The notes under the pieces: model-generated
What the model was told of the DNA's origin: nothing
The model's input: only the letters and a program-made list of their open reading frames with translations
Database searches by the model: none
Assembly: GCA_040756875.1 (NCBI GenBank)
Contig: JBFLYH010000001.1
Span: forward strand, 1,276,878-1,340,877
DNA length: 64,000 nucleotides
Direction of reading: 5' to 3'
Source: a candidate division FCPU426 bacterium
GTDB lineage: Bacteria; Oederibacteriota; JAAXVQ01; JAUVAV01
Shown: in pieces, positions 26,243 to 46,936 of the stretch
Layout of the letters: each line of letters starts with the position of its first letter
Position numbering within the stretch: position 1 is the stretch's first letter
Position numbers and translations under genes: made by a program

Positions 26243-28219
26243 ATGACCGCCTCCCCTTCCGCTTCCCCGACCCCTGCCTGGACCTGGCCGGCCAAACTGT
26301 TCGCGGCCAGCCTGGTGGTGCTGGCTTTCGGCCTGCTGCTGCAGCCCCTGGGCGATCCGGACGTGTACATCCACCTGCGCGACGGCCGCTACTGGGTCCA
26401 GAAACACCTGCACGCAGGCCCCGAGCCTTTCGCCTACACGGTCCCGGACAAGCAAATCGAAAAAGTGGAAGTGCTCTTCCGCATCGGCATCTACCTCGTT
26501 TACCGTTTGGGCGGCTATCCCCTGCTGATCATCCTCAAAGCCCTGGCCATGACCGCGGCCCTGTGGCTCCTGGCTGCGCTAGTGTACCGGCGCTGGCCGA
26601 ACCTGGCCGTGGTCAGCCTGCTGCTGGCCGTTGCCATGCTGGCGCCCATGACCCGCATCATGCCCGAGCGGCCCTATGTCGTCACCTATTTGCTGCTGCC
26701 CTGGGTCATGCTGGTGCTGGAGCGCTTCCGCGGCGGAACCTCGTCCTCGGCCCGGCGCGACCTGTGGCTCCTGCCCTTGCTGGTCGTTCCCTGGGTGAAC
26801 CTGCACCCCGGCTTCATCGTCATGTTCGGTTTCATCGGCGCCCACCTGCTCGAGGAGGCCTGGGAATACTGGCGCGCGCCGGGCGCGGCGGGCAAACAGC
26901 GCCTGCTGCACCTGGCGGCCGTGCTGGCGGTCGCGGCCCTGGCCGGCGCCCTCAATCCCCTGGGCTTCGGCATTTACCGCTTTGTGTTCGAAACCACGGC
27001 TTCGCGGGATTTCATGCGCTTCCTGACCGAATGGGCGCCGCCGGTCTGGTCCGAACAGCCGCTCTTCTTCATCCTCCTGGCCGTGACCTGGCTGGCGCAG
27101 CTCGCGGCCTGGCGCCGCACCCGGCTCGCGGATTGGCTGCCCCTGCTGGCGTTCTCGTACCTGGCCCTGAAATCCTACCGCAACCTGCCCCTGTTCTTTT
27201 TCGCAGCCCTGCCGCCCCTGGCCGCCAACCTGCGGTGGCTGGCCGGAAAGCTGCCCTGGCGGGCCGCGCTCTCCGCCGCTTCGCGCCGTCTGGCCCTTTT
27301 CGCGGGCGCGGGCCTGGCCGCCGTGCTCATCGCCTTGTCCGCAGTCACGGGCTTCAGCTTCAGGCTGGGCCTCATCCCCAACCTTTACCCCACGCACGGC
27401 CTGCCCTGGCTGCTCAAACACCCGCTCCACGGCCGCATTCTGGCCCACGACATTTGGGGCGGATACATCGGCTGGATTTCCCAGGGGGGCGTGCAGGTTT
27501 TCATCGACGGCCGCTTTCCCCTGTTCGGGGAAAAGCTGTACGCGGACTACCGCAAAATGATCTGGGGCGACCCCCAGGAGTGCCTGGCGCTCCTGGACCG
27601 CTACGACATCCAGGGCCTGCTGGTCTCCCCCAAGAACGAAATCCGCATGTTCCAGCAGATCTGGAAATCCGGGCAATGGGTGCTGGTGTATTGGGACGAC
27701 GACTGCCTGATTTACGCCCGCCGCAGCCAGGGCAACCTGCCGGTGATCCTGTCGTTCGGCTACACGGCCATTGATCCCAAGAAGAACCCCTTTTTCCATC
27801 CGCAAAAACCCGAGCAGGCCCTGGCCGAGGCCCAGCGCGCGGCGGAGATCGCGCCGGACTCGGTCCTGCCGCTGTTTTTTACCGGCCAGTTGCAGCTGCA
27901 ACTGGGGCGGCTGCAGGAAGCGCGGCTGGCTTTCGAGCAGGTGCTGCGGCGCGCGCCCCGGCATGCGGGCGCCTGGTTCCAGCTGGGGATGATCGCTCGC
28001 GAGGACAAACAATGGCAGGAGGCCGAACGCCGGCTGCGCCGCGCGTACGGCTATGAAACATCGCCTCCCTGGCGGGGCCGGATCAGCTATTTTCTGGCGG
28101 ACACCCTCAAGAACGACCCCGGCCGCAGAAGCGAGGCCCTGGCCTGGGCTCGGCGCAGCCGCGCCCTGCTCCCGGACTGGGAGCCGGCCGCCACGCTGCT
28201 CAAGGAGTTGGAGCCTTAG
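26243..28219 (+). CDS. GT-C-like polytopic membrane protein with C-terminal TPRs
   Basis: Start at ATG 26243 (GGAG RBS). DPDVYIHLRDG, WVNLHPGF, LNPLG, TEW, FIDGR, and terminal TPR helices. Confidence 0.75.
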   Translation: MTASPSASPTPAWTWPAKLFAASLVVLAFGLLLQPLGDPDVYIHLRDGRYWVQKHLHAGPEPFAYTVPDKQIEKVEVLFRIGIYLVYRLGGYPLLIILKALAMTAALWLLAALVYRRWPNLAVVSLLLAVAMLAPMTRIMPERPYVVTYLLLPWVMLVLERFRGGTSSSARRDLWLLPLLVVPWVNLHPGFIVMFGFIGAHLLEEAWEYWRAPGAAGKQRLLHLAAVLAVAALAGALNPLGFGIYRFVFETTASRDFMRFLTEWAPPVWSEQPLFFILLAVTWLAQLAAWRRTRLADWLPLLAFSYLALKSYRNLPLFFFAALPPLAANLRWLAGKLPWRAALSAASRRLALFAGAGLAAVLIALSAVTGFSFRLGLIPNLYPTHGLPWLLKHPLHGRILAHDIWGGYIGWISQGGVQVFIDGRFPLFGEKLYADYRKMIWGDPQECLALLDRYDIQGLLVSPKNEIRMFQQIWKSGQWVLVYWDDDCLIYARRSQGNLPVILSFGYTAIDPKKNPFFHPQKPEQALAEAQRAAEIAPDSVLPLFFTGQLQLQLGRLQEARLAFEQVLRRAPRHAGAWFQLGMIAREDKQWQEAERRLRRAYGYETSPPWRGRISYFLADTLKNDPGRRSEALAWARRSRALLPDWEPAATLLKELEP

Positions 28220-30185
28220 GAAGCGCCGGCCGGGGCTGGGGCACGAACACCCGGACCTCCACGCGGCGGTTGCGGGCGCGGGCGTTTTCCGAGCGGCCGC
28301 GCGCCTCGGGCCGGGATTTGCCGAACCCCGCGACGGAGATCGCGTCGCGGGACGCGTCCCGCTGGTCCGCAAGGAAATTGGCCACCATGAGCGCGCGCTC
28401 CCGCGACAGCTTGAGATTGGCTGTCACAGTGCCGATCTCGTCCGCGTGCCCTTCGCTCACGGCCCGGGCCTGCCCGGGATGGCGCCGGAGGAGTTCCGCC
28501 GCGGCCAGGCACTTGTCGGTCATGGCCGCGTCCAGCACCGCGCTGTTGAAATCGAACAGAATGCCGTAGATCAGAACGCCCGCTTCGCCCTCGGACGCTT
28601 CCACCCGGCGGGCGGCCACGGCGCGGATGTCGCCCGCCACCACGGCTTCGGAGCCGTCCGGATAAGCCACGGCCAGTTCGTAGCTGTATTTCAGCCTGGT
28701 GTCCGCCACTTTTCCCTGGCCGGAAAGGCCGTCCCAGAACAGTTCCTCCGGCAGTTCACCCTCGGCCTGCAGGGCCCTCACCTCGGCTTTGCCGCCGCGC
28801 TCCCGTATCCGCAGGCTCCAGCGCTGCACCGGGGGGCGCAGGTTGAACGCAAAGCGCACGCCCGGTTCGATCTCCGCGCCATCGCTGAACTGCAGCTTCA
28901 GCGGCGGTTCCAGCTGCGGCAGCTGCCGCGCGGTCTCGGTTTTTCCGGCGATGAACACCACCTGATAGCTGTCCTTGGCCGGCAGCAGGTTTCCGGCTTC
29001 GTTCCGGCCGTCCCAGGCCAGGCTGTCCGGCGGCAATCCGGCGCTGGAGAAGGTTTTCACCACCTGGCCTTCGTGGTTGCGGATCTCGAAGCGCCAGTCC
29101 CTGGCCTTGGCGGCGAATTCGGGGGGTTTGAACGCCAGGCGCCCCTCGAATTGCTGCGGCAAGACGGTCAGCCGCTTGGGCTGGGCCTGGGTGGCCTGGG
29201 CCACGCGCAGCTTGATCGCCGCGCCCTCGGCCTCCGGGGCCGCGGCTTCCAGGTCGCGCGGCGACGGTCCGGCCTGTTCGGGGAAATAGTAGGACAGGGT
29301 AAAGCGGTGGTTGTCGCCCAGGCCGTCGAAGGGCTGGTAGGCGTAATCCAGTCCGAACCCGCCGAAGCGGACGCCTGCGCCCAGGGACAGAGAACCCAGT
29401 TCGTCGAGCACACGGTACCCGGCGCGCACGGACACCAGGGATTGATACATGTATTCCAGCCCCGCGGCCACGGCCCGGTCTTCGGCGCCGGTCAGGGGCT
29501 GCTGGAAGTCCGCGAGCACATTCACCGCGTGCCCTTCGCCTGGCAGCCACTCCCAGCCGATGCCGGCCAGGAGCCGCAGAGGCAGCGGGTCCGCCTCGGT
29601 CTCGAACGCGGTCATGGCGCCCAGGTTGCGCAGGGCCGCGCCCAGGCGCACGGGCAGGCCGGGCAGTTTGAACTGCAGGCCCAGGTCCACGGCGCCGCCC
29701 TGGCTGGAGTAACCGGCCAGCAGGCTGGTGAAATATTTGGCGGTCAGTCCAGCGCTCAGACCGGCGCCCAGGTCGCGGGCGTGCGTGACAGCCGCGAGCA
29801 GGTCGTAATTCTCCAGGGCGCCGACCTCCTCGCCGAACTCATTGATTTCCATGAAATTGTAGGTGCTGGCGTAGAAGAATTGCCCGGCCCAGGCGCCGCC
29901 CAGCCAGTCCGGATAGAGGCCTTCCAGTTGTTCGTACGCGGTGTCCACCAGGGAAGCCAGGTGGGTAAACGCCAGCGCCGGCTGGGTCTGGCCCAGGATG
30001 CCGGCCGGATTCCAGGCGAGCTGCTGCGAATCGCCCTGCCCGGCCGTGCCCGCGGCCAGGGCGGCGGAGCGGGCCGGCACCTCGGTCAGCAGGAATTCGG
30101 CGCCCGTAGTGCCGGCGGCGCGCGCGCCGCCGGCCAGCAGGCAAGCCGCGGCGGCCGCAACCGCCGTTCGTTTAAAACGCCCCAT
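28200..30185 (-). CDS. PorV/PorQ-like beta-barrel + two FlgD-Ig-like domains + OmpA-C domain
   Basis: GTTGAEFL...ARSAAL..WNPAG...NHRFTLSYYF; two W..I....WDG....G domains; FDFNS..GHADEIG..NLKLSRERA..GFGKSRP..RNRRVEV. Confidence 0.8.
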   Translation of the reverse strand: MGRFKRTAVAAAAACLLAGGARAAGTTGAEFLLTEVPARSAALAAGTAGQGDSQQLAWNPAGILGQTQPALAFTHLASLVDTAYEQLEGLYPDWLGGAWAGQFFYASTYNFMEINEFGEEVGALENYDLLAAVTHARDLGAGLSAGLTAKYFTSLLAGYSSQGGAVDLGLQFKLPGLPVRLGAALRNLGAMTAFETEADPLPLRLLAGIGWEWLPGEGHAVNVLADFQQPLTGAEDRAVAAGLEYMYQSLVSVRAGYRVLDELGSLSLGAGVRFGGFGLDYAYQPFDGLGDNHRFTLSYYFPEQAGPSPRDLEAAAPEAEGAAIKLRVAQATQAQPKRLTVLPQQFEGRLAFKPPEFAAKARDWRFEIRNHEGQVVKTFSSAGLPPDSLAWDGRNEAGNLLPAKDSYQVVFIAGKTETARQLPQLEPPLKLQFSDGAEIEPGVRFAFNLRPPVQRWSLRIRERGGKAEVRALQAEGELPEELFWDGLSGQGKVADTRLKYSYELAVAYPDGSEAVVAGDIRAVAARRVEASEGEAGVLIYGILFDFNSAVLDAAMTDKCLAAAELLRRHPGQARAVSEGHADEIGTVTANLKLSRERALMVANFLADQRDASRDAISVAGFGKSRPEARGRSENARARNRRVEVRVFVPQPRPALPKAPTP

Positions 30186-30200
30186 CGTGTTCCCCCTCAT

Positions 30201-30256
30201 TCCCCTGGCAGGAGGGATGCATGCGAATCTCCTGCTGCGGGGATGTCGCCCCGCAG
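30201..30256. repeat. short hairpin repeat, second copy inside kdsC
   Basis: 30221-30250 is the exact reverse complement of 50054-50083. Confidence 0.8.
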
Positions 30257-30260
30257 TGGC

Positions 30261-32099
30261 CTAACGCACGACCACCAGTTTGCGTCTTTCCTTGAATCGG
30301 CTGGTTTCCACGTACACGATGTACACGCCGGACCTGACGATCCGGCCTTCGCGGTTGGCGCCGTTCCAAACCGCCTCAAAGGTGCCGGCTGAGGCCATCT
30401 GATCCGCGACGGTTTTGACCAGTTTACCACGGAGCGTAAAAATCCGAATTTTAACTTGCTGCGGTTCGTCCAGGTACACCGCGATCGGCAGCGGCGGCTG
30501 GGAAGTTGGCTTGAAAACATTGCCCCTGATGATCACGGGCGAGGCGCCTGAAGGCGAAACCAGGCGCGAAGTCGGCGTCGTGGTGGGGGTGGCGGTATGG
30601 GCCGTGACCGTGGTCCCGGCGGGCGTGGAGGTCGGCGTCTCCGCCACCGGAACCGTGGCGGTCCGGGTCGGGGTAAAGGTCAGGGACGCGGTGCGCGTGG
30701 GTGAAATCGTGGCGGTCAGGCTGGGGGTGAGCGTCAGGGAAACGGTCGGCGAGAGCGTGGCCGTCCGCGTCAGGGTGAAGGTCGCGGAAATGGTGCGCGT
30801 GGCCGAGAGGGTCGCCGTGGTCGTGGGGGTGAAGGTGGCCTGCGGGGTGGGGCTGACCGTGGGCGTGAACGTGGCCGTGGGAATGCCCGGCGTAGGGCTT
30901 ACGGTGCAGGTCGGGGTGATCGTGGGCGTGGGGGTAGGCGTGCGCCAGCGGCGGCAGTAGATCACGTGCTTGGACGTGCCGTCGTTTTCCTCCCAGGCCA
31001 CGTAGGGCGTGTCGCCGATCACCGCGATGTCCGGGTTGGCGCTGCCGCGGAAGACATCCACGTTCAGGCTGATATCCAGGGGAATCCAGGTGGTCAGGGT
31101 GACGTGTTGCTTGGCGTACACCTGGATGGTGTTGCCGTCGAACTCGCACCAGGCCACGACCGGATTGCCGCTGGGCAGCAGGGCGACGTCCGGCGCAAAA
31201 GCATCCTGGGTGTCCCCGGTATTCAGGGCCGGTCCCATGACCTGCCAGTTGCCGTCGTAATACTTGATGAAAACCTGCCGGTTGCTCCCGTTGTGCTCTT
31301 CCCACACCACATAAGGCGTCTCGTTCCAGACCGCGAGCCGGGGATGCCCGGCGTTGTTCAGAGCATTGTTGTTCAGGCTGCCGCCGAGGAGTTCCCAGCC
31401 CGTGCCGTTGAAGCGTTTGACGTACACCTGCGTGCCCAAACCGGCCGTTTCCTCGCACCAGGCCACGACCGGAAAGCCGCTGGCCGTCATCTGGATGTCC
31501 GAAGCCGAGGCGTTCCGGTTGAGGTTGAAATTCAGCGACGGCGCATCCACCATCCAGCCAAGATTGTAATGGGCAACGACGATCTGGGTGGCCACGCCGT
31601 TGGATTCGGTCCAGGTGGCGTATGGCAGGCTTCCAAAAATGGCCAGGCGCGGCATGAGCGTCGGATAACCGTAGGCAGTGGCCAGGCCGCCCATGGGCTG
31701 CCAAACGCCCAGGACGTAGCGTTTCAACCATATCCGGGCCATCGGCGGGTTTTCGATCCACAAGGCGTGCGGGTATCCGGCAATGTCCACGTCCAGATCC
31801 GAAGCCGGCGCATCCGCCGTGGCAGTGATGTTCAACGCACCGCCCATGGGCAACCAGGAAGTGGAAAAATTGCGCCCGACCAGCATCAAATTGGCGCCGT
31901 TGTATTGGCTGAAAATGACGTAGGGCGTCAAGGTGCCGGACGCCACGTCCGCGATGGCCGGCATTTGGGCGTGATAAGCCGCGTCGCTGACCACTCCCCC
32001 CACGTCCTCCCACACTGCCCGGCCGGTCACCGGCAAACTCAACAGCAGCGCGCAACCCATCAATACCTTCAGCCGAATGGACCCCTCCATGCCGCTCAC
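30261..32099 (-). CDS. secreted seven-repeat beta-propeller + Thr/Pro stalk + FlgD-Ig/T9SS-like CTD
   Basis: Signal peptide; seven P.VAW.E....Q..VK....W...G.LN repeats; TPT stalk; IRIFTLRGKLVKT...WNG.N..G..V.SGVY. Confidence 0.8.
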   Translation of the reverse strand: MSGMEGSIRLKVLMGCALLLSLPVTGRAVWEDVGGVVSDAAYHAQMPAIADVASGTLTPYVIFSQYNGANLMLVGRNFSTSWLPMGGALNITATADAPASDLDVDIAGYPHALWIENPPMARIWLKRYVLGVWQPMGGLATAYGYPTLMPRLAIFGSLPYATWTESNGVATQIVVAHYNLGWMVDAPSLNFNLNRNASASDIQMTASGFPVVAWCEETAGLGTQVYVKRFNGTGWELLGGSLNNNALNNAGHPRLAVWNETPYVVWEEHNGSNRQVFIKYYDGNWQVMGPALNTGDTQDAFAPDVALLPSGNPVVAWCEFDGNTIQVYAKQHVTLTTWIPLDISLNVDVFRGSANPDIAVIGDTPYVAWEENDGTSKHVIYCRRWRTPTPTPTITPTCTVSPTPGIPTATFTPTVSPTPQATFTPTTTATLSATRTISATFTLTRTATLSPTVSLTLTPSLTATISPTRTASLTFTPTRTATVPVAETPTSTPAGTTVTAHTATPTTTPTSRLVSPSGASPVIIRGNVFKPTSQPPLPIAVYLDEPQQVKIRIFTLRGKLVKTVADQMASAGTFEAVWNGANREGRIVRSGVYIVYVETSRFKERRKLVVVR

Positions 32100-32164
32100 C
32101 TGCTTTCCACGCTGGTATTATACCGCGGGTTTCAATAAAACCGTTGCAGAACCCGTCCAATTAG

Positions 32165-32294
32165 CAGGGTGCTGAAAAACCCATATATCATCCCCTAGCA
32201 CCCTGCTACCCCATGAAAAATCTCTGATTTTTCATGGGGTATTCCATGCAACGCAATCGAAAAAGACCGCTCTGCGGGCTTTTTCATCAGCCTG
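32165..32294. mobile_element. 130-bp MITE with 15-bp terminal inverted repeats and a TTAG target duplication
   Basis: CAGGGTGCTGAAAAA / TTTTTCATCAGCCTG (13 of 15 match), TTAG at 32161-32164 and 32295-32298, internal 16-bp hairpin at 32207-32241. Confidence 0.75.
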
Positions 32295-32325
32295 TTAGAC
32301 TCATCCGCAAACTCCCAGGCTCCCG

Positions 32326-33282
32326 CTACTTGATGACCGCCACCTTGAACCGCTCTTCCCCGCCCGGCCCGGATAAAATCAGCACATAGATCCCGCTGGC
32401 AACCTTTTGGCCTGACGAGGTGGTTCCGTCCCACTCCACGGCCTGCGGGCCGACAGCCAGGTCCTGGTCCAGCAGTGTGGATACGGGCCGGCCCTCGCGG
32501 GAAAAAACCGCCACCCGGCAGCGGCCGGGCTGGTCGAGCGTGAATTCCAGACGCGCGCGTTCGAAACGGTTCAGATGCAGGGTGTTGTTCAGCAGGCGCG
32601 CCTGGCTTACGGCCAGCGCGGTTTTGGCCGCGCCCTGGCGCTCCGGCTCGCCGGCCGCCGGCCTCAGGGGTTGCGGGGCGCGGGCCGTTTTCGGCTGGCC
32701 GTGCAGCCTGGGGCCGCGTATCCGCGGGATTTCCGCAGCTGGCCGGGCTGCCTGTCCGGCGGTAGGAACCGGAATGGCGGCAGCCGCAACTTGCGGCGTT
32801 TCCAGCCGGGCCGTGCGCGCCGGCGTGTAAACCGGGGTCAGCCGGGCCGTCTTTTCTTCGGCCGTCATTGCCGGCATCGGCGCCTGGGACTGGGCCGGCT
32901 GCGGGGCCTGGACCAGGGTGACAACCGGCGGTTCGGGCGGATGCTGCAACACGCGATAGGTGGACAGGACCAGCGCAGCCGCGGCCGCGGCCACGCCCAG
33001 GGCGCCGAGCGTGGCCGGCACCCAGTGCCAGCGGTACGGCCTGGGCGCGGGCAAACCGCCGAGGCGCAGCCGCAACCGGTGGTTGAAATCCGCGGGCGCG
33101 CGCAGGGAGTAATCGCGGGCCAGGGCGCGCGACATCGCCTGCTCCCAACGGTCTTCGGCCGCGCACAGCGGGCAGTCGGCCAGATGGCGGCGCAGGCGCT
33201 CCTCCCGCCGGGGCGGAAGCGTTCCCGCCCGCCAGGCCGACAATTCCCTGCTCCAGGCCGGATCGTGCCGGGGTGGGGTCAT
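32326..33282 (-). CDS. zinc-finger (ZAS/zf-HC2) anti-sigma factor with C-terminal FlgD-Ig/T9SS-like domain
   Basis: HLADCPLC (HxxxCxxC), one TM, Pro/Ala linker, then VAVFSREGRPVSTL...EWDGTTSSGQKVASGIY...KVAVIK. Starts 4 bp after the sigma gene. Confidence 0.8.
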   Translation of the reverse strand: MTPPRHDPAWSRELSAWRAGTLPPRREERLRRHLADCPLCAAEDRWEQAMSRALARDYSLRAPADFNHRLRLRLGGLPAPRPYRWHWVPATLGALGVAAAAAALVLSTYRVLQHPPEPPVVTLVQAPQPAQSQAPMPAMTAEEKTARLTPVYTPARTARLETPQVAAAAIPVPTAGQAARPAAEIPRIRGPRLHGQPKTARAPQPLRPAAGEPERQGAAKTALAVSQARLLNNTLHLNRFERARLEFTLDQPGRCRVAVFSREGRPVSTLLDQDLAVGPQAVEWDGTTSSGQKVASGIYVLILSGPGGEERFKVAVIK

Positions 33283-33286
33283 GGGG

Positions 33287-33892
33287 TCACGGCTCCCGCC
33301 TCCAGGATTTCAGCAATCTGCGCAGGTCCTCGCGCGCGCGATACAGGCGCGACTTCACCGTGCCCTCGGGCAGGCTGAGAATCCGCGCCACCTCGGCGAC
33401 TTCCAACCCTTCCAGTTCCTTCAGGATCAGAACCTGGCGAAAACGGGGATCGAGCTGGTGGATGGCCTTGAGGATCATTTCCTTGGTTTCCTCCGATTGG
33501 GCCAGTTCCTCGGGGGTGGAGGGCCAGTGGACACCCATGGGTTCGCCGGCCTCCAGCGCGGCCGTGAACAGCGTCCGCCGGCGCGAAGACTTCTTGGACT
33601 GGGTGTAAACCAAATTGACCGCAATGCGGTACAGCCAGGTGTAAAAATTGGATTCCTGGCGGAATTTGCCCAAACTGCGGTAGGCTTTCACGAACGTTTC
33701 CTGCGCCAGATCCTCGGCCTCCTGGGCGTTCAAGACCATGTGATAGACCAGGGCGTACAAGCGGTCCCGATAACGGGTCACCAGGGCGTCATAGGCGTCG
33801 GCGTCGCCCCGCAGGGTGCGCGCGATCAGCTGGCGGTCAGGTTCCCGACTATCGTTTAGACTGGAAGGCTCAGGACGAGGTTCCCGGCTCAT
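33287..33892 (-). CDS. ECF RNA polymerase sigma factor
   Basis: AEDLAQETFVKAY, FYTWLYRIAVN, EVARIL..PEGTVKSRLYRAR. Confidence 0.93.
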   Translation of the reverse strand: MSREPRPEPSSLNDSREPDRQLIARTLRGDADAYDALVTRYRDRLYALVYHMVLNAQEAEDLAQETFVKAYRSLGKFRQESNFYTWLYRIAVNLVYTQSKKSSRRRTLFTAALEAGEPMGVHWPSTPEELAQSEETKEMILKAIHQLDPRFRQVLILKELEGLEVAEVARILSLPEGTVKSRLYRAREDLRRLLKSWRREP

Positions 33893-36800
33893 GGAAGTTT
33901 TTTACGGATGGTTTCCCAACGCTGGTGGAACAAGGTATTGTCCGGTTCCAGGGCCAAAGCCTCGCGGTAATGCCATTCGGCTTCGGACCAGCGCGCTTGG
34001 CGCTCCAGCAGCTGGGCCAGGTTGTAATGCACCACGGCCCAGTTGAGCGAAAGCAGTTCCCATTCGTACTTGCCCTGGGCGGACGGCGCCAAGGCCTGGA
34101 GTTCGAGGGCAATGCGCAGGCTGCGTTCGGCCTCGGGATAAGCCCGGCGCATTTCCTCGGCCAGGCCCAGGTTGCTCCAGGCCCCCGCATACCGGGGTTC
34201 CAGGTCCACGGCAATCCGCCAGGCACGTTCGGCCCCGTCCATGCGCCCCGCGTCCCGCAGCTGGTTGCCCAGTTCGAAATACAACGGGGCCTGGTGAGGG
34301 GCGCGCTCCACAGCCTGCCGGAAGGCGTTCTCGGCTTGGTCGTACAAGCGCTCGCGTTCTTCGCCGGCCAGGCGGCTGGCGCGAAGCCCCAACAGCACGC
34401 CGAGGTGGCGGTGGATGAACGCATCGCTTCCGTTGAGGGAGAGCGCCCGCCTGAAGGCCCAATCCGCCAGCTGGTACCAATTGTCCGCGTCCATCAGGGC
34501 GTACAGGTCGGTGCGCACCAGGCCCAGGCGGTCGTAGCCCCGGCTGGAGAGCGGATGCACGAGCAGCGCCCGCTCGTAGGCGCGGCTGGCGGCTTTCAAG
34601 TCTTGCTTATAGTGCAGCGCCTCACCCAACCGCTCCAAATACTCGCCCACCAGCGGGCGGGTCGCGGTCAGGGCCACGGCGGCCAGCAGCACGGCCAGCA
34701 GCACGGTGAGCGGCTGGCGGCCGTAAACCCGCCACAACTCGGGCCAGGACACTGGTTTGGACTTGGCGAACGGCGCGGCAGACGGCGGCGCGGTGGCCAC
34801 GCCGGCCAGCAGCATGTACCACAATAAAAGGCCCGGCACGTGCCAGTTGAAATCCAACAAAGCCTGCGCCATGGCCCCGGCCAGCCCGGCCCAGGCCGCG
34901 ATCCGGGCCGCAGCCTCCCAGGACGGCGGCTTGGCCGCCTCAAGCGGACCGGCGCGCCAATAGCGCCGGAAATGCCAGTACAACATCAACAGCCCGGTGC
35001 CCAGCAACAGCAGTCCGGGCAGGCCCGTCGCCGCGGCCATTTGCAGCGCTTCGTTGTGGGCGAACTCGGCCTGCTTGCCGTAGCGGGCCAGGCCGCGGAG
35101 GTTGGGAAAGCTGTAACGCTCGAAAGCGTCCGCGAAATTTCCCGGCCCCACGCCCAGGATCGGATGGTCCCGGATCATTTTAAGGGAAGCCAGCGCCAAT
35201 TGTGACCGCTCGTACGCCTGGCCGGAATAACCCTGCCAATCCCGCAGGCGGTTTCCGGCGGACATCGGCAGCAGCACCGCCAGAATGGCCAGCAAGGCTG
35301 CCGCGCCCAGGGCCGCTGAAAAATACCGCGAATGGCCCTGGCGCAGGCGCGCAAGCAGCAATCCGGTTCCGACCGCAAAATTCAGCAGGCCGGCCATGGA
35401 GCCTGTGGCCAGGAGGGCCAGAAAAACCAGGACGCCGCCGGCGCCGGCGGCCAGGCGCCAGTTCCGGCGCCAGGGAGCCCAGATGGCCAGGGCCGACAGG
35501 CTCAGCCCGCCCAGTGACAGGTACGCGGCCAGGATGTTCGGATTCGGCCAGCCGGCCGTGGCCCGCGCGCCGGCCGGAGCGGTCAGGCTCTCCCCCAGCG
35601 CCATCAGGGCCAGGGCCAGGGCGCCGGCGCCGGCCAGCGGCGCCAGCCAGGCGCCCAAATTCGCCGCGGTCGAAGCCAAGGCGAACACCACGAGCGCCAG
35701 CAGCCCCAGGCTCAGGCCGGTAATGGCGCCGGCCGGATGCGGAGAAGCCAGGGCCGACAAGGTGCTCCAGACAAACAGCATGCCCAGGGGCCAGCGCCAG
35801 GGCAAGCGGCGCAAGCCTTGTTCCCAATTCTGCCATTGCGTCAGCCGGGCCAGAAAAAACCACAGCAGCGCCGCGGCCGCCAGCCAATAGACTGTTCCCA
35901 TGACCACCAGGCTGCGTCCGGCCCGCCACAGCACCACGGTTCCCACCATGAAAAGGGTCCAGCGCAGCCAGGGTTCCCAGGGCGCAGCCGCGGGTTCGGG
36001 TTTGGATTTCTTCGAACCGGTCAGGCCGGCCAGGGTGCCTGCGAACAGCCAGAACGTGAGGCTGGTTTTTAAAAAATCCAGGTCCACGTCCACCAGCGCG
36101 TGCAGCAGGCCCGCCGCCAGGCCGGCTGCAAGCCCCAAAGCCAGGATGCGCTGGGGATGGTTTTTAATTTTGGAAAAGCCCTTCTTTGCATGCAGGCCCA
36201 CGGCGGCCGCCAGCCAGACAAACGCCCCCACGCCCAGCAGGCCGGTTTCAGCGAAGCGCTGCAGTAAAAAGTTGTGCGCATACCTTACAAAGGAACCGGA
36301 AAGGTGCTGATACTCGGGAAACAGGCTGCCGAAAACCCCGGGCCCCACGCCGGTCGCCGCATGCTCCCATCCCATGCGCAGCGTGCTGAGCCAGTTGAAC
36401 CCCCGGCTGACGAGATTCGCGGACAGCATTTGCGGATCGCGGGCCAGGATCAGGACCAGGGCCACGCCCAGGGCCAGGGTCGAACCCGCGGCCCAGACCA
36501 TCCAGGTCCGGACCCACGGCAGCCGGTCTTCGGACCCATGCTGCCACCAGAAAAAGAACAACGCCAGTCCGACGACGGCGGACATCCAGCCGCCCACTGA
36601 TCCCGTGGCGTACAGGCCCAGCATGACCAGCACCAGCCCCCCGGCCACCAGGACGGCGGCCCAGCGCCGGCGCGCGGTCAGCAACAGGGCGAAACCCAGC
36701 GGCAGAAACTGGCTGAGAAAACCCGCCAGCAGGTTGGGATAGACCAGGAGCGAGAAGGCGCGCCGCGAGGACAGGCGGCGGGCAATCTCCTCGTTTAAAG

Positions 36801-37290
36801 GGCCTTCGGGCGGGTTGACGCCGAAAACCTGCTGGTACGTCTGGGCCAGGCCGGTCACGTGCTGGTACAACCCGTACAGCGCCAGCACGGCCGCCACGCC
36901 GAACAGGGCCAGCAAGGCCGGGCGCGCCGTATGGACGGTGCGCGCCGTAAGCGTAGCGCCGAGAAACAGCAGGAGCAAGGCCAGCTCCCGCGCAAACGGG
37001 TTGATGCTCGCCGCCGGGTCCTGGGACCACAGTACGGACAGCGCCCAAGCGGCCGCGTACGCCAGAACCGCAGGGCCGAAGGCGACGGGCCCCTGGGTTT
37101 CCGTGTGGAAGGCCAGTAACAGCCACAGAAACGCGGCCAGCAGCAGCGAACCGAGCAGGAAAAGCGAGACGGTCTGCGGAAGGAAGGTTTGCGGAATCAG
37201 CAGTAAGGCGCCCACCAAGCCCGCAACGGCCCAAAAGCCGTTGCGGCTGACCCACCGGGGATACCAGTGGCCGAGCAGGAATGCGGTCAT
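33889..37290 (-). CDS. tandem O-antigen ligase (Wzy_C)-like domains + TPR
   Basis: Two sets of R...PN.LA..L / ATGS / GVGPG.F / AHN..LQ...G..G motifs, then C-terminal TPRs. Confidence 0.8.
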   Translation of the reverse strand: MTAFLLGHWYPRWVSRNGFWAVAGLVGALLLIPQTFLPQTVSLFLLGSLLLAAFLWLLLAFHTETQGPVAFGPAVLAYAAAWALSVLWSQDPAASINPFARELALLLLFLGATLTARTVHTARPALLALFGVAAVLALYGLYQHVTGLAQTYQQVFGVNPPEGPLNEEIARRLSSRRAFSLLVYPNLLAGFLSQFLPLGFALLLTARRRWAAVLVAGGLVLVMLGLYATGSVGGWMSAVVGLALFFFWWQHGSEDRLPWVRTWMVWAAGSTLALGVALVLILARDPQMLSANLVSRGFNWLSTLRMGWEHAATGVGPGVFGSLFPEYQHLSGSFVRYAHNFLLQRFAETGLLGVGAFVWLAAAVGLHAKKGFSKIKNHPQRILALGLAAGLAAGLLHALVDVDLDFLKTSLTFWLFAGTLAGLTGSKKSKPEPAAAPWEPWLRWTLFMVGTVVLWRAGRSLVVMGTVYWLAAAALLWFFLARLTQWQNWEQGLRRLPWRWPLGMLFVWSTLSALASPHPAGAITGLSLGLLALVVFALASTAANLGAWLAPLAGAGALALALMALGESLTAPAGARATAGWPNPNILAAYLSLGGLSLSALAIWAPWRRNWRLAAGAGGVLVFLALLATGSMAGLLNFAVGTGLLLARLRQGHSRYFSAALGAAALLAILAVLLPMSAGNRLRDWQGYSGQAYERSQLALASLKMIRDHPILGVGPGNFADAFERYSFPNLRGLARYGKQAEFAHNEALQMAAATGLPGLLLLGTGLLMLYWHFRRYWRAGPLEAAKPPSWEAAARIAAWAGLAGAMAQALLDFNWHVPGLLLWYMLLAGVATAPPSAAPFAKSKPVSWPELWRVYGRQPLTVLLAVLLAAVALTATRPLVGEYLERLGEALHYKQDLKAASRAYERALLVHPLSSRGYDRLGLVRTDLYALMDADNWYQLADWAFRRALSLNGSDAFIHRHLGVLLGLRASRLAGEERERLYDQAENAFRQAVERAPHQAPLYFELGNQLRDAGRMDGAERAWRIAVDLEPRYAGAWSNLGLAEEMRRAYPEAERSLRIALELQALAPSAQGKYEWELLSLNWAVVHYNLAQLLERQARWSEAEWHYREALALEPDNTLFHQRWETIRKKLP

Positions 37291-37733
37291 TCTTTGGAAG
37301 CGGCCAGCAAGGAATGGGCGGCTTGCAACGCCAGCAGGTATGACTCGGCGCCGAATCCCATGATGCGGCCCGTGGCCACGCCGGCCACATAGGACCGGTG
37401 GCGGAAATCTTCGCGTGCGTATACGTTGGACAGGTGCACTTCGATGGTGGGTATGTTCACGGCCTTAAGGGCGTCCAGAATCGCCACCGAGGTGTGCGTG
37501 TAAGCCGCCGGATTGATGATGATGACTTGGGCCCACAAGCGCGCGTTTTGGATGGTCTCGACCATCTCGCCCTCATGGTTGGTCTGGACGATGCGCACTT
37601 CCAGGCCCAACTTGTTGGCCAGGTCCTGGACCGACTGGTTGACTTCCTCCAGTTTGACCGAGCCGTAGACTTCGGGCTCGCGAATTCCGATCAGATTCAA
37701 ATTCGGACCATGTATGACTAAAACCCGGTTCAC
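37287..37733 (-). CDS. aroQ: type II 3-dehydroquinate dehydratase
   Basis: HGPNLNLIG.REP.VYG, NPAAYTHTS.A..DA, EVHLSN...RE.FRH.S. GTG start follows GGAGG. Confidence 0.95.
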   Translation of the reverse strand: MNRVLVIHGPNLNLIGIREPEVYGSVKLEEVNQSVQDLANKLGLEVRIVQTNHEGEMVETIQNARLWAQVIIINPAAYTHTSVAILDALKAVNIPTIEVHLSNVYAREDFRHRSYVAGVATGRIMGFGAESYLLALQAAHSLLAASKE

Positions 37734-37764
37734 CCTGTTCCTCCCGCAACCCGACATCCTAGGC

Positions 37765-37894
37765 GGCGGACGTTCCAGCTTATCGTCTCACCAGCCTAAC
37801 CTCATTCAAAAGGTTCCTCTTCGGATTCGGGTTGCTTTCCGAATCTGAAGAAATGATATCGAAGGCCTTGAGGCGGTGAGCTGGAACGTCCGCC
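37765..37894 (+). ncRNA. candidate structured RNA: long rod with central bubble (6S-like architecture)
   Basis: 26-bp outer stem and 13-bp apical stem. All four non-Watson-Crick pairs within the stems are G-U on the + strand. Confidence 0.4.
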
Positions 37895-37909
37895 ACCCTC
37901 TTCCCTCTT

Positions 37910-38989
37910 CTACCAGAGATAATCCATGGGGTCCTTGACGCGGCCGCGCTCCAAGATTGAAAAATGCAGATGCGGGCCGGTCACCCGGCCGGTCGATCCG
38001 GAACGCCCGATCAATTGGCCGCGGCGGACGGATTGCCCGGTCCGGACAAGGATCTGGTCCAAGTGCCCGTACACGGTTTGATACCCGTTGTGGTGGTCGA
38101 TTTTAATGAACTTGCCCACGGCCCCGCCCCAGCCCGCCGCGATGACCGTGCCCTCGGCCGCCGATCCGACCCAGGTGCGGTGCGGGCAGGCGATGTCTAC
38201 GCCGTTATGGAACTTGGAAAAACCCAGCACCGGATGCAGGCGCATGCCCACGAAGGAGGTGTACCGTCCGGCCAGCGGCGAACGGAAGAGTGCGCGCTTG
38301 CTGTACTGCTCGTGCATGCCTTCGGAAAGATAGCGGGGCTTGGCGCCCGGGATGAAAAGCCACATACCCGGCAGTACGTCCCAATCGCTGTGGATGAGGT
38401 TGGCGCCGAGAATGGCGGCCGGCTCCACGCCGTAATCCAGGGCCACGGTGTCGATGGTTTCCCCGGGTTTGATCTGGTGCAAAGAACCGCCCTGCGAGGG
38501 AAGCAGGATTTTCTGCCCCTGAAAGCAGATCACCTGGCGCAGGTGCGGATTGCAGCCCACGATGGTGTCGATGGTGTAGCCGCGTTCCTTGGCGATCTGC
38601 CAGTAGTTTTCGCCGTTGGCGATGGTATGCAGGGAAAACTGGACGGCCTCGGGGTTCACGAAGCGGGTGTAGCTCAGAATCAGATCATCGAGCCCATCGG
38701 CTTCCCGGCTTCCGGCCTGCAGGCCGGTTTCCAGGGCATCCAAAAAAGCGGTCAGGTCCGGATACAGGTCGAACCCCTCCCCTGAGTAGGCTTCCAAGCG
38801 TTCGAGGGCGAAGGCTGATGGCAGGGACTGCTGGTTGGACGTTTCCGGGTACAAAGGGGCCACCGTGGGTTTGACGATCGTCGCAGCCACGGCCAGAGCG
38901 CCCACAGAACCTGCCAGACCGATAACCAGCAGGAAACGCAACGGGCGAAAAACCGGAAAAAGCCTGGATATCAAGGAGATTTGCAGCAT
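37910..38989 (-). CDS. LysM x2 + M23 metallopeptidase
   Basis: Two LysM-like segments, HNGVD, YGHL, GRVTGPHLHF. Start is uncertain. Confidence 0.9.
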   Translation of the reverse strand: MLQISLISRLFPVFRPLRFLLVIGLAGSVGALAVAATIVKPTVAPLYPETSNQQSLPSAFALERLEAYSGEGFDLYPDLTAFLDALETGLQAGSREADGLDDLILSYTRFVNPEAVQFSLHTIANGENYWQIAKERGYTIDTIVGCNPHLRQVICFQGQKILLPSQGGSLHQIKPGETIDTVALDYGVEPAAILGANLIHSDWDVLPGMWLFIPGAKPRYLSEGMHEQYSKRALFRSPLAGRYTSFVGMRLHPVLGFSKFHNGVDIACPHRTWVGSAAEGTVIAAGWGGAVGKFIKIDHHNGYQTVYGHLDQILVRTGQSVRRGQLIGRSGSTGRVTGPHLHFSILERGRVKDPMDYLW

Positions 38990-39114
38990 GTGAGGGAATC
39001 TTATCACGGTTTGCCACCTGGGTCCATAAAAAAACCCCGGCCTCAATTTAGTCATCCCCTTCGCCGGCGGACTCTGTAGGCGGAACTCATCCGGAATGCC
39101 TACACCCTTCGGGC

Positions 39115-41043
39115 TCAGCGCATGATCGCCAGCTTGCCGCGCCGTTCCTCAGTTTCGGATTTAATGATGTAAATATACACGCCCGAGGCGACCCGCTTGC
39201 CCTGGCTGTTGGTCAGGTCCCATTCCACCCGGTTGCCGGGTGAATCTTTGTAGAATTCGCGCACCAGGCTCCCGCCCAGGTCGTAAAGCCGGATGACGCA
39301 GCGCCGCGTCAGGTTGAAGAAAACGATCTGGCCGCGCACATTCCTGTCCGTACGGAAGGGATTGGGATACACGATCATGTTCGACAGGTCCGCCGCCTCG
39401 ACGTTGGGGGTCGAAGTCAGCGTGAAAGTCGGGGTCAGCGTGATGGTCGGCGTCAAGGTCCGCGTGGGCGAAAGCGTGCTGGTTGGGCTCTGGGTAAACG
39501 TCGCGGAAATGGTCGGCGTGCGGGTAAACGTCGGCGTCACCGTAAAGGTGGAGGTTTGGGTCGCCGTGGGGGTAAAGGTGTCCGTCGGAGTGGTGGTGAA
39601 GGTCTGCGTGAAGGTCCGGGTCGGGGTTTCCGTGGGCGTGGCCGTAACCGTGTCTGTGGGTGTATGGGTGGCGGACTGAGTGAACGTCGCGGTGGAGGTC
39701 TGCGTCGGCGTGACCGTGGGCGTGGCTGTGCGGGTATAGGTCACGGTATCGGTGGCGGATTCGGTGGCCGTGGGCGTCACGGTGGGAGTGGGCGTGGAAG
39801 TCCGCGTAGGAGTGGCGGTAGAAGTCTCTGTAACCGTGTAGGTCTGGGTAGGCGTGGGCGTGATCGTCAGGGTGGGCGATTCGGTGAACGTCGGGGTGCG
39901 GGTAAAGGTCGGTGTATAGGTGGAGGTGGCCAAAGGCGTGTACGTGGGGGTGCTGGTCAGCCAGACATATTCGTAAATATTGTTGTCGGCCGAGGCGACG
40001 TACAGGCAGTTGTAGTTCGCGCCTTCGCGCCCGATGCCGGCCGCCATACCGTATAAGGCGCCACCGGAATCCGCCACCAGGGTCGAGGACCACGAAGCGC
40101 CGTTCCACCGGTATTCGTACGTCGCGCCGTCGTTGAAGCCGGCATACAGGCGCGTGACCCCGTCGTTGCGGACGTCGCCGATGGTCAAGCCGCGGCAGGT
40201 GTTGTTGTTGCCTCCCGGGCCGCCGATCGAGGACCCTGACCAGCTGCTGCCGCCCCAGACGAATTCCCACACCACGCCGTCATTGTGCCCGGCGTACACG
40301 TAATTGTTGCTGTCGCCATTGCGCCCTTTGCCGACCTGCACCACGTTGAAATTGTCTCCGCCGTTGCCCATGTCGGTTTGGCTGTAGGCGCTGCCGGTCC
40401 AGGTGTGCTCGTAGACGTGGTTGTTCAAGCTCGCGATGTACAGCCGAGGCACCAGGTCGTTCCGTCCATAGCCCAAGGCCACGGACACCGCGTCATCGCC
40501 CACATCCGTTCCGGCGTTATTGCTCAAATACATCGAAAAAAAACCGTTCCACTCAAATTCCTTGACGAAATTATCCGCGCTGCCCGTATAAATAAAATTC
40601 GAGGGATTTAAATTCCTGCCTTTGCCAACCACGCAGCTTAGCAGATTTTGCGACAGGCCCGAAGTTTGATACATTTCCCAGGAAGTGCCGTTGTAAAAAT
40701 AATCCATCAAACGGTTATTGTAGCCGCTGGCGTAAATGCGCGCTTCCCCGTTATTCCGGCCCTCACCCACCGCCACGCCGGACAGAATGTCCCCGGTGGC
40801 CGTGCCCACCGTCCCGCCGTTCCACCCGAAGCCATCCCACTGGTATTCATGCAAATACTGGTCGTCGCCGACCGCATAGAGATAAACGCCCGCAGAACCA
40901 TCCCGCCCCGCGGTCACGGTTACATCGCGGAAAGTGTTCGTTCCGCTGATGGTGTTCAACTCCCAAACAGCCAGAACCGTCGACGGCAATCCTGTTAAAC
41001 CAAGAGCTGGGATCAGGATCATGGTCATTGCGAACTTGTGCAT
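39115..41043 (-). CDS. secreted seven-repeat beta-propeller + Thr stalk + T9SS-type CTD
   Basis: Seven G.GRN....RLY......YE..W.G.SW repeats; stalk; IVYPNPFR...WDLTN..G.RVASGVY...GKLAIMR. Confidence 0.8.
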
Positions 41044-41115
41044 GCAGCGCACTCCTCTTGACGGATGTCCTTATTTTTGCACACCCGTCTTAAAAAGCAA
41101 AGCCGGTTTTTATCT

Positions 41116-43056: not shown

Positions 43057-43088
43057 CTTTTTCCGATTTCTCCCCTTGGTTTGAATTT

Positions 43089-45152: not shown

Positions 45153-45233
45153 GTGATATTCCTCGTCTCGAAGGCTGTAATTGCACCCCCGCCCCTGCCG
45201 GTCACCCCGACCCGCCCGGCCGCTTGCTCCGAA

Positions 45234-46778: not shown

Positions 46779-46936
46779 TTCAGCCCGCCTAATATGCAAA
46801 ATTACTTCATATTTAGTATACCAAAATATTTTCAATGGCACCAATAATTCTATTTTACGCGCCCTCAATAAAATCATTATTTTAAAAGGTTTTCCAGGCG
46901 GATCACAAGGATGGTTCTTCGCAATATTTAGTGTAG

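Follow-up and report, generated by a model that had tools for sequence, protein, structure and literature searches.

An anti-sigma factor with a tethered sorting-type C-terminal domain, encoded beside a PorV-like barrel in a candidate division FCPU426 bacterium

Genes of the locus and build of the anti-sigma factor

A 64,000-nucleotide stretch from a candidate division FCPU426 bacterium (phylum Oederibacteriota; assembly GCA_040756875.1, contig JBFLYH010000001.1, forward-strand positions 1,276,878 to 1,340,877; the whole stretch is referred to as the window and is numbered from its first letter) was analysed for a gene pair encoding an extracytoplasmic function (ECF) sigma factor and an anti-sigma factor, the latter ending in a domain which resembles the C-terminal sorting domains (CTDs) carried by type IX secretion system (T9SS) cargo. 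A sequence-only reading of the window had singled out this pair, together with the cargo and barrel genes that follow it, as a possible secretion checkpoint. Every part named in that reading was found where it had been placed, and all lie on the minus strand:

33889..37290, minus strand: Wzy_C (O-antigen-ligase-like) and TPR membrane protein, 1133 amino acids (aa) (Wzy_C E=2e-26, several TPR models)
33287..33892, minus strand: ECF (group 4) sigma factor, 201 aa (Sigma70_r2, Sigma70_r4_2, TIGR02937)
32326-33282, minus strand: anti-sigma factor, 318 aa (zf-HC2, list of open reading frames)
33043..33282, minus strand: cytoplasmic anti-sigma domain, residues 1-80 (zf-HC2, H33-x3-C37-x2-C40)
32944..33042, minus strand: single transmembrane helix, residues 81-113 (AlphaFold2 model, hydrophobic run)
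32623..32943, minus strand: disordered Ala/Pro-rich periplasmic tether, residues 114-220 (AlphaFold2 confidence, composition)
32329..32622, minus strand: T9SS type-A-like (FlgD_ig-type) sorting domain, residues 221-318 (cargo-only profile, AlphaFold2 model)
32100..32325, minus strand: intergenic region between anti-sigma and cargo genes, 226 nucleotides (nt) (sequence reading)
30261..32099, minus strand: secreted cargo protein, 612 aa (TIGR04183, FlgD_ig)
28200..30200, minus strand: PorV-like barrel with two Ig-like domains and an OmpA-like domain, 666 aa (NF033709, OmpA, FlgD_ig, AlphaFold2 model)

The sigma factor matched Sigma70_r2 (PF04542; E=8e-19), Sigma70_r4_2 (PF08281; E=6e-16) and TIGR02937 (106.6 bits against a cut-off of 42.9). 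With sigma-2 and sigma-4 regions only, in a protein of about 200 aa, it belongs to the ECF (group 4) sigma factors, its nearest named models being RpoE and SigW, each under its own cut-off. Eleven sigma-like open reading frames (ORFs) were counted in the genome (3.22 Mb on 7 contigs, 100% complete by the tool's figure), and a CTD-bearing partner was found only at the sigma gene of the window.

The anti-sigma gene starts 4 nt after the sigma stop codon, and profile matches together with an AlphaFold2 (AF2) model bore out the earlier description of its product as an HxxxCxxC protein with one helix and a Pro/Ala linker. The N-terminal domain scored 26.4 bits against zf-HC2 (cut-off 22.2) and weakly matched RsiW by sequence (5wuq, E=0.08), and H33, C37 and C40 of its H33-x3-C37-x2-C40 motif are invariant in 21 of 21 members of the family described below. 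This H-x3-C-x2-C domain, and the position of the gene directly 3' of the sigma gene, place the protein among the class I zinc-associated anti-sigma (ZAS) factors; it putatively binds and inhibits the neighbouring sigma factor, and the motif is putatively of the zinc type.

In the AF2 model, which was made from an 83-row alignment, N-terminal helices (residues 8-57; predicted local distance difference test, pLDDT, about 90) are followed by one long helix (residues 81-113), a disordered region (about 120-220; pLDDT about 42) and a C-terminal beta-sandwich (225-317; pLDDT 97). The hydrophobic run WHWVPATLGALGVAAAAAALVLSTY in the translation was taken as the membrane helix and, since positive residues precede it, the N-terminus was taken as cytoplasmic (positive-inside rule). 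The tether of 107 aa, of which 23 are Ala and 21 Pro, has an estimated contour length of roughly 35-40 nm and could span the periplasm. A semi-conserved small-residue motif (AAG, SAAS or AAS) was observed in the tether (window 32623-32700) about 15-25 aa before the tail; it stands out in most of 61 aligned members, while the rest of the tether is unconserved, and it may be a processing site.

No cleavable Sec signal peptide was found, the N-terminus being the ZAS domain followed by the internal helix 81-113. As it has no such peptide and is anchored in the inner membrane, the anti-sigma factor is not itself cargo and cannot leave the cell whole; the earlier suggestion of inactivation by export, as in FlgM, accordingly found no specific support. 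Profile searches gave no match on the anti-sigma factor to a FecR domain or to barrel families, its C-terminal domain being a soluble beta-sandwich.

The sorting-type domain and its family

The tail was aligned with the tails of five Thr-stalk cargo proteins of the window, with which it shares 21-27% identity and 9 invariant columns. A hidden Markov model (HMM) built from the five cargo tails alone, the anti-sigma factor being left out, matched residues 232-317 of the anti-sigma factor (40.2 bits, E=1.5e-10), so that the motif-for-motif likeness described from the letters was found to be homology. When this HMM was searched against the 10,142 ORFs of the genome, 44 were matched, the anti-sigma tail among them, and 84 ORFs were CTD-ended after one iteration. 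The tail occupies the extreme C-terminus (to residue 318 of 318) and ends in RFKVAVIK, with K313 invariant in 21 of 21 family members; a lysine near the C-terminus is almost invariant in type-A CTDs (Lauber et al., PMC10994853).

Compared by sequence with the Protein Data Bank (PDB), the tail profile matched Ig domains of FlgD (E=4e-9), the PorU CTD (E=1e-3) and the PorZ CTD (E=4e-3). The top fold match of the tail in VIA was the PorU CTD (6za2_A; Z 11.1, root mean square deviation 2.4 over 92 residues, 21% identity), with PorZ (5m11) at Z 9.8 and many unrelated Ig-like domains within 1 Z of the top. Since so many Ig-like domains tie within one Z unit, fold alone decides nothing, and the Foldseek and VIA fold searches were set aside as a test for a CTD, as CTDs and other Ig-like domains were not separated by them.

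The sequence-only reading had called the next gene's tail the closest relative of the anti-sigma tail. This held within the window (blastp, 45.1 bits, against 41.6, 35.0, 31.6 and 31.2 for the other cargo tails) and failed genome-wide, where the next gene's tail ranked 6th of 83 other tails. The best match of an anti-sigma tail was another anti-sigma tail in 38 of 41 cases, and no more than 3 loci had their own cargo as the best-matching one. A tree of 175 tails, though poorly resolved, showed strong clustering of the anti-sigma label (9 changes, against 37 in shuffles), and a single clade of anti-sigma tails, that is, one origin, was compatible with the tree (approximately unbiased test, p=0.41). 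As these comparisons place it, the tail is an old lineage specific to anti-sigma factors. It is also the best-conserved segment of the protein, with a median identity to 60 relatives of 38%, while the helix reaches 29%, the anti-sigma domain 21% and the tether 13%.

A word-indexed protein search returned only 6 relatives of the anti-sigma factor (35-64% identity), and an exhaustive profile search covering 1.84 billion representatives was needed for the family to show. Of the 154 proteins collected, 99 combine the HxxxCxxC motif in its strict form with a hydrophobic helix and a CTD at the end, with 2 more just below the helix threshold, and these proteins fall into two families. The short family, to which the protein of the window belongs, has 21 members (23 with the two below the helix threshold) of 315-366 aa, in which the periplasmic part is the tether only and the tail follows the pattern RLLNNKIxLNRGERARLEF...RFKxAVIK, without a PNPF motif. 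The longer family, which is unrelated to the short one, has 78 representatives of 420-564 aa with a ZAS motif, one helix, an acidic stretch and an extra globular periplasmic domain of conserved sequence (GYEVAxAGVDK...CExTC...ISDLKS), and ends in a fully canonical NYPNPFNPTT-type T9SS CTD. It appears in Zixibacteria-like and other Fibrobacterota-Chlorobiota-Bacteroidota (FCB) group records, and two of its members lie beside ECF sigma genes (L041:2037-3479, with the sigma gene at L041:1486-2067, and L064:3794-5332, with the sigma gene at L064:3246-3824); no PorV-like gene was found next door in L041 or L064. The fusion of an anti-sigma factor with a sorting domain is, judged from these searches, an old and widespread family.

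The nearest feature clusters in the ESM Atlas (0.84-0.85, all <0.9 and thus leads only) were hypothetical Bacteroidota proteins some 360-390 aa long. Roughly half of them bear CHU_C, the type-B T9SS tail, a hint that the architecture may exist in cultured lineages in a type-B version as well.

With the short-family profile, at least 33 of the phylum's 99 genomes gave full-length matches; the window's order is covered completely, as are many distant families in part of the phylum beyond it, two or three copies being present in some. A scan of metagenome contigs gave 78 loci, none with a full-length relative, all being cargo tails. PorV-like barrels were found in all 99 species representatives of the phylum (10-64 first-look candidates each). 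As many of these genomes show no full-length family member among the matches listed, the module is not needed for the route in general. Since barrels are in all 99 genomes, a test of whether the family and PorV-like barrels occur together across the phylum was uninformative.

The survey of linkage to PorV-like genes that had been proposed with the sequence-only reading was made on a sample of 40 loci from 32 other genomes, annotated with HMMs built in this analysis. The sigma gene lies directly upstream of the anti-sigma gene in 39 of the 40, the exception (L239) having no sigma match in the 1.9 kb upstream before the contig end. A PorV-like barrel on the same strand was found within 3 kb in 30 of the 40 loci, and anywhere in the locus in 31, while the chance expectation within 3 kb is about 4% by our own arithmetic from 43 barrels in 3.22 Mb; of the loci lacking a barrel (10 within 3 kb, 9 altogether), 5 offer under 3 kb of DNA on the downstream side. 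In 27 of the 40, a CTD cargo gene follows within 3.2 kb downstream. Three gene orders were seen: sigma, anti-sigma, cargo and barrel-OmpA, as in the window; sigma, anti-sigma, plain barrel and giant cargo; and barrel, barrel, sigma and anti-sigma.

On a tree of 83 barrel domains, one clade takes 30 of the 37 barrels adjacent to anti-sigma genes and includes only 2 of the 42 other barrels of the window's genome; its support in the Shimodaira-Hasegawa-like approximate likelihood ratio test (SH-aLRT) was 92, which is moderate, the method being a quick one. The label of anti-sigma adjacency required 9 changes on this tree against 27 in shuffles, 0 of 500 of which were as low. As the adjacent barrels are mostly of one clade, the anti-sigma factor travels with a dedicated barrel lineage.

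Neighbouring genes, predicted docking and transcription

The cargo protein next to the anti-sigma factor (30261-32099) has a repeat-rich N-terminal part, a Thr-rich stalk and a sorting domain at about residues 514-612 (nt 30264-30560), and scored above the cut-offs of both TIGR04183 (23.9 bits, cut-off 23) and FlgD_ig (28.1 bits, cut-off 27). The protein encoded after it (28200-30200) had been called a PorV-like barrel, an assignment which profile and fold searches confirmed: it matched NF033709 (131.8 bits, cut-off 90), OmpA (E=1e-12) and FlgD_ig (E=1.4e-7), the last in an internal domain at residues 362-414. In its AF2 model (mean pLDDT 87.8), a barrel of 14 strands (about residues 75-305) leads through a disordered link to two Ig-like domains and an OmpA-like peptidoglycan-binding domain. 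The best PDB matches of the model were the PorV chains 8gl6_F (E=6e-14) and 6h3i_F (E=1.5e-13), with FadL/TbuX-type barrels next at E=4e-8, five orders of magnitude behind. Having passed NF033709 and showing the PorV fold, it is a member of the PorV/PorQ family. The fusion of the cognate barrel to two Ig-like domains and an OmpA-like domain was observed in the window's order, and distant families have a plain barrel of about 300 aa.

The tail (residues 215-318) was then modelled in complex with the barrel protein in its mature form (residues 29-666), as had been suggested earlier, with both partners supplied as alignments. The score was 0.84 (0.84, 0.84 and 0.86 in three runs), compared with 0.06 for the best of 3 controls; of 157 solved complexes, 116 came up to the mark used for this score, as did 2 of the 215 mismatched pairs, counts which are only rough here as our own alignments were supplied. 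Contact agreement between the runs was at least 84%, and partner pLDDT at least 81. On the barrel side the contacts lie at residues 83-87, 113-131, 161-166, 198-205, 239-241, 266-269 and 291-294 and at the mature N-terminus; counted back along the strands from the periplasmic C-terminal domains, these segments would be extracellular loops. On the tail side the interface includes the family-conserved residues N233, R262, G264, A295, G297, I298, K313 and I317, with K313 contacting barrel residues 113 and 116 in the model. The neighbouring barrel is thus predicted to hold the tail as PorV holds cargo.

With regard to delivery machinery, 44 matches to the PorV_fam profile were found in the genome, 33 frames of which scored over the cut-off; in all, the genome has about 40 genes for PorV/PorQ-family barrels. 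Cargo and barrel genes are often adjacent pairs (for example C1:1100072-1102989, C1:631353-634173, C1:734336-737580 and C2:294182-297096), which has the look of private barrels, used as carriers or anchors, rather than of one shared PorV. An SprA-like frame of 2111-2149 aa gave five colinear match pieces, all under the cut-off, and a PorU-like protein matched Peptidase_C25 (E=9e-49), with NF033707 under its cut-off. A paralogous cargo and barrel pair without a sigma/anti-sigma pair was observed at C2:325950-329101, the barrel having an internal CTD-like match. Elsewhere in the genome, a 7689-aa open frame at C1:1007254-1030323 carries several internal FlgD_ig/CTD-like repeats and is adjoined by a barrel-like ORF (C1:1006273-1007241), which has a long branch and is one of the only 2 other barrels of this genome that fall within the anti-sigma-adjacent barrel clade.

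The start of the sigma gene and the stop of the Wzy_C and TPR gene overlap by 4 nt, for which the two were scored as translationally coupled, and an overlap also exists between the start of the Wzy_C and TPR gene and the stop of a small aroQ-like gene (window 33889-37757). The order cargo, M23 peptidase, aroQ, Wzy_TPR, sigma, anti-sigma, cargo and barrel is kept in a relative of the same genus (locus L015, on a contig shared with L203), where the gene order is identical to that of the window and the orthologues at each position are 85% (sigma), 78% (barrel), 77% (Wzy_C and TPR), 61% (anti-sigma) and 48% (cargo) identical. This conserved order and the overlapping starts and stops suggest a single long transcription unit which would tie glycan ligation to the module.

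In the region between the anti-sigma and cargo genes of the window (32100-32325), a TATAAT box was observed to come after two inverted repeats, both strong (CCCCATGAAAAATC...GATTTTTCATGGGG and GCAGGGTGCT...AGCACCCTGC); this could be a terminator or attenuator plus an own promoter for the cargo gene. Among relatives the gap between the two genes ranges from -4 to +201 nt. In six loci (L208, L209, L215, L218, L227 and L230) the cargo gene overlaps or abuts the anti-sigma gene (gap of -4 to +1 nt), which makes co-transcription likely and gives the sole hint as to the regulon. A scan of 27800-47300 for consensus promoters and terminators returned nothing usable for setting operon limits. No spaced dyad was common to the 40 sigma upstream regions, the best occurring in 10 of 40 and probably reflecting close relatives. 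The shared ECF promoter motif which the sequence-only reading had proposed to look for upstream of CTD-cargo genes was likewise not found, as no dyad was enriched upstream of 80 CTD genes compared with 2269 other genes (best p = 3e-5 in 40,806 tests, the best dyads being AT-rich).

Proposed carrier-occupancy sensing and alternative explanations

The explanation preferred here is that the ECF sigma factor, the zinc-type single-pass anti-sigma factor, the dedicated PorV-like barrel and the surface-protein cargo would form a trans-envelope signalling module. The tethered sorting domain most likely acts as pseudo-cargo, reaching the outer membrane and docking on the loops of its cognate barrel, probably where these are accessible from the periplasm inside an SprA-like translocon, a position at which it may sit as a permanent pseudo-substrate. 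The state of the barrel (free, tether-bound or cargo-bound) would then decide between the anti-sigma factor's stability and its regulated proteolysis, with displacement of the tail by real cargo altering its susceptibility, and this stability would set expression of the operon (sigma, anti-sigma, cargo and barrel). That the anti-sigma factor is a carrier-occupancy sensor of this kind, reporting the state of the carrier route to the sigma factor, is given about an even chance of being correct. The analysis itself bears on the homology and arrangement of the domains, the persistence of the fusion, its linkage to one barrel lineage and a modelled interface, whereas binding of the tail, competition with cargo, proteolysis, the direction in which control runs and the regulon are inferred, as is the wider notion of a secretion checkpoint, in which engagement, cleavage or competition would govern sigma release.

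Parts of this arrangement are familiar from other systems. RsiW/SigW and RseA/RpoE share with the present pair the HxxxCxxC motif, a single helix, an anti-sigma gene directly after the sigma gene and, in all likelihood, stepwise proteolysis, although the extracytoplasmic parts of RsiW and RseA are not known to be secretion-system sorting domains or to have any link with carrier barrels of the outer membrane. FlgM/sigma-28 likewise reads out the state of a secretion machine via an anti-sigma factor; FlgM is, however, soluble, of another anti-sigma class and exported whole by the flagellar type III system, whereas the protein described here is membrane-anchored.

Closer in layout is Dma1, an anti-sigma factor which spans both membranes via a disordered linker (PMC10927553). 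Dma proteins and the present one have in common an ECF partner, a sigma-binding portion at the cytoplasmic N-terminus, a single helix through the inner membrane and an extended disordered linker to the outer membrane, and proteolytic control is proposed for both. Dma proteins end in an eight-strand outer-membrane barrel of their own (OMP_b-brl_2), whereas the sorting domain at the end of the anti-sigma factor here is soluble, and the protein would have to dock on a separate PorV-like barrel to get to the outer membrane at all. It may function in the manner of Dma proteins, yet having no OMP_b-brl_2 barrel it is not a member of that group.

In FoxA/FoxR/FoxI (PMC11637429), a barrel domain in the outer membrane binds the anti-sigma factor's periplasmic C-terminal domain and shields it from proteolysis, so that contact with the barrel protein governs proteolysis. 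The logic of barrel, inner-membrane anti-sigma factor and ECF sigma factor is shared with the module here, as is the presence of the barrel gene in the same locus. The module differs in having no FecR domain or TonB-dependent receptor, in its PorV (FadL-like, 14-strand) barrel and in a predicted contact with extracellular loops, where the contact in FoxA/FoxR is with a periplasmic signalling domain.

In the SprA translocon, PorV is the carrier to which type-A CTD cargo is bound (PMC10994853; PDB 8gl6, 6h3i), and cognate shuttle-cargo gene pairs exist for type-B CTDs (PMC12618676). The C-terminal lysine of the tail, the predicted docking on loops and the cargo gene beside the barrel gene are features in common with the type-A system, to which the tail may also be alike in fold. 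Unlike type-A cargo, however, the tail here is without PNPF and is carried by an inner-membrane-anchored regulator without a Sec signal peptide, and hence cannot be released; moreover, the genome has about 40 PorV-like barrels rather than one, and GldKLMN were undetected. PorA of Porphyromonas gingivalis, a secreted CTD protein which binds PorV, influences PorXY-SigP (PMC7712824). As in the module proposed here, a PorV-binding CTD protein informs an ECF sigma pathway about the T9SS, but PorA is a surface protein acting through a two-component system with no anti-sigma factor, whereas here the CTD is within the anti-sigma factor itself.

Of published links from a CTD protein to an ECF sigma factor, this indirect PorA-PorXY-SigP pathway is the closest one found. 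The statement that no anti-sigma factor of this build was known stood up in full-text literature searches, in which no description of an anti-sigma factor ending in a T9SS-type sorting domain was found. The ECF classification of PMC7826278 names no FlgD_ig, PF13860, Por_Secre_tail, PF18962 or CHU_C in its main text and part of its supplement, the remainder of which could list one. Related kinds of system (cell-surface signalling, dual-membrane anti-sigma factors) are known; the present analysis adds the size of the two families, the phylum-wide linkage, the dedicated barrel lineage, the evidence that the tail is no copy of its neighbour's and the controlled complex prediction.

A number of observations weigh against occupancy sensing or against parts of it. 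With curated models the check proposed earlier came out negative: the anti-sigma tail gave no match to TIGR04183 or PF18962 at E<=1, scored 25.7 bits against FlgD_ig, under the cut-off of 27, and reached E=0.19 against CHU_C. The PNPF-type motif of canonical type-A CTDs is present in 0 of 21 short-family members, the Ig domains of flagellar FlgD outrank the PorU and PorZ CTDs as PDB sequence matches, and the Ig-like sandwich is a common fold. As curated models fail while the HMM from five local tails matches, the tail is best described from its sequence as a divergent, specialised member of the FlgD_ig/type-A CTD superfamily, and not one that passes the models. The idea that it is a copy of its neighbour's tail was rejected by the rank of 6th of 83, the 38 of 41 best matches and the 3 loci given above. 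About two thirds of the phylum's genomes are without a full-length member among the matches listed, and in four loci (L206, L215, L228 and L233) the barrel is absent despite at least 3 kb of downstream DNA. The search for an ECF-type promoter motif upstream of the sigma and cargo genes gave a null result. GldK, GldL, GldM and GldN had no match in the genome; as no control genome matched GldL, GldM or GldN either, absence of these three is not shown by the result.

The docking prediction is subject to two further objections. As PorV-CTD complexes have already been solved, its pass may reflect likeness to these (model memory) and not binding of this particular pair. In addition, the predicted site faces outside, and a protein anchored in the inner membrane would reach it only via a translocon or the lumen of the barrel. 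In stalled translocons the CTD sits on the loops of PorV inside the SprA pore, with the passenger at the periplasmic rim (PMC10994853); given this geometry and the SprA-like and PorU-like proteins of the genome, docking is geometrically feasible. The sequence-only reading had itself named what would count against it, namely a domain not homologous to the cargo CTDs, homologues mainly in genomes without PorV-like or CTD proteins, or a sigma regulon unrelated to envelope or secreted proteins, and none of these was found where it could be tested.

Three other explanations were weighed. The secretion machine might treat the tail as a secretion signal and pull it, or cut it by means of the PorU-like C25 peptidase, in which case sigma activity would be a sign of a running machine. 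The anti-sigma factor does retain the conserved C-terminal lysine and a CTD-like fold, the genome encodes PorU-like and SprA-like proteins, processing might take place at the small-residue motif 15-25 aa ahead of the tail, and proteolysis of a ZAS anti-sigma factor triggered by truncation is known for RsiW. Since release of the carrier-substrate complex is the step of the T9SS which requires energy (PMC10994853), a tethered substrate would also come under tension. This course of events is nevertheless considered rather unlikely, as a tail that is strongly conserved throughout and inherited along with one barrel lineage fits a stable, specific partner better than a disposable tag, the candidate cleavage motif is an observation on the alignment only, the GldL and GldM motor genes were not found (the control genomes also being unmatched), and the nearest solved relatives of the tail, the CTDs of PorU and PorZ, are from the group of proteins that retain this domain (PMC7712824). 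Were the tail instead to pin the anti-sigma factor permanently to a barrel fixed to peptidoglycan by its OmpA domain, the protein would be a Dma-type mechanical or envelope-integrity sensor, reading outer-membrane damage, vesiculation or the width of the periplasm and not cargo load. The layout of inner-membrane helix, long disordered linker and outer-membrane end is like that of Dma1 (PMC10927553), the barrel of the window's order has OmpA-like and two periplasmic Ig-like domains, a stable interface is predicted, and the sigma factor is nearest to the RpoE and SigW envelope-stress types, though under their cut-offs. A CTD cargo gene within 3.2 kb downstream in 27 of 40 loci points rather to a role connected with cargo, the predicted site is the cargo-binding face of the barrel, and the cognate barrel of distant families is a plain one of about 300 aa without an OmpA domain, so that a purely mechanical sensor is judged unlikely.

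It is quite improbable that the sandwich is simply an Ig-like (FlgD_ig) module for a periplasmic ligand, glycan or protein, unrelated to secretion, with the neighbouring cargo and barrel genes being no more than the regulon of an ordinary sensor. FlgD_ig-type domains do occur internally and in the periplasm (residues 362-414 of the barrel protein and the repeats of giant proteins), and the FlgD matches at the top of the PDB sequence search, the common fold and the unpassed curated CTD models would all suit such a module. The domain, however, lies at the very C-terminus in every case, closes with the K-x-x-V-I-K/R pattern that cargo tails have, is matched by an HMM made from cargo tails only and is co-inherited with one lineage of PorV-like barrel; it is also predicted to sit on the cargo-binding loops with family-conserved residues in the interface, and a second, unrelated anti-sigma family ends in a canonical NYPNPFNPTT-type CTD.

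Beyond the window, carrier-occupancy sensing by a tethered sorting domain may be one case of a general, undescribed class of secretion-coupled ECF signalling in bacteria with CTD-dependent delivery, in which the anti-sigma factor would thread pseudo-cargo into the translocon or onto a cognate PorV-type carrier and the sigma factor would read free carrier capacity, matching production of that carrier's cargo to it. We put this forward tentatively, as somewhat less probable than not. Equally tentative is the suggestion that such a class has arisen in several independent versions, namely the short tether-only family, the longer family with a canonical type-A CTD and possibly a type-B (CHU_C) version in Bacteroidota.

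The proposal bears on how the production of surface proteins is matched to the capacity of a type IX-like route. If the explanation preferred here is true, an anti-sigma factor with a sorting domain would be a direct, one-protein sensor of carrier or translocon occupancy, and would represent a third way to pass a signal across two membranes, in addition to cell-surface signalling of the TonB-dependent kind and to the Dma factors. The hypothesis can be addressed with few proteins (tail, barrel and sigma factor), maybe in cultured relatives with the longer or type-B versions, and, as a regulatory partner marks one barrel lineage, the family gives a handle on the private pairs of cargo and PorV-like barrel in uncultured phyla.

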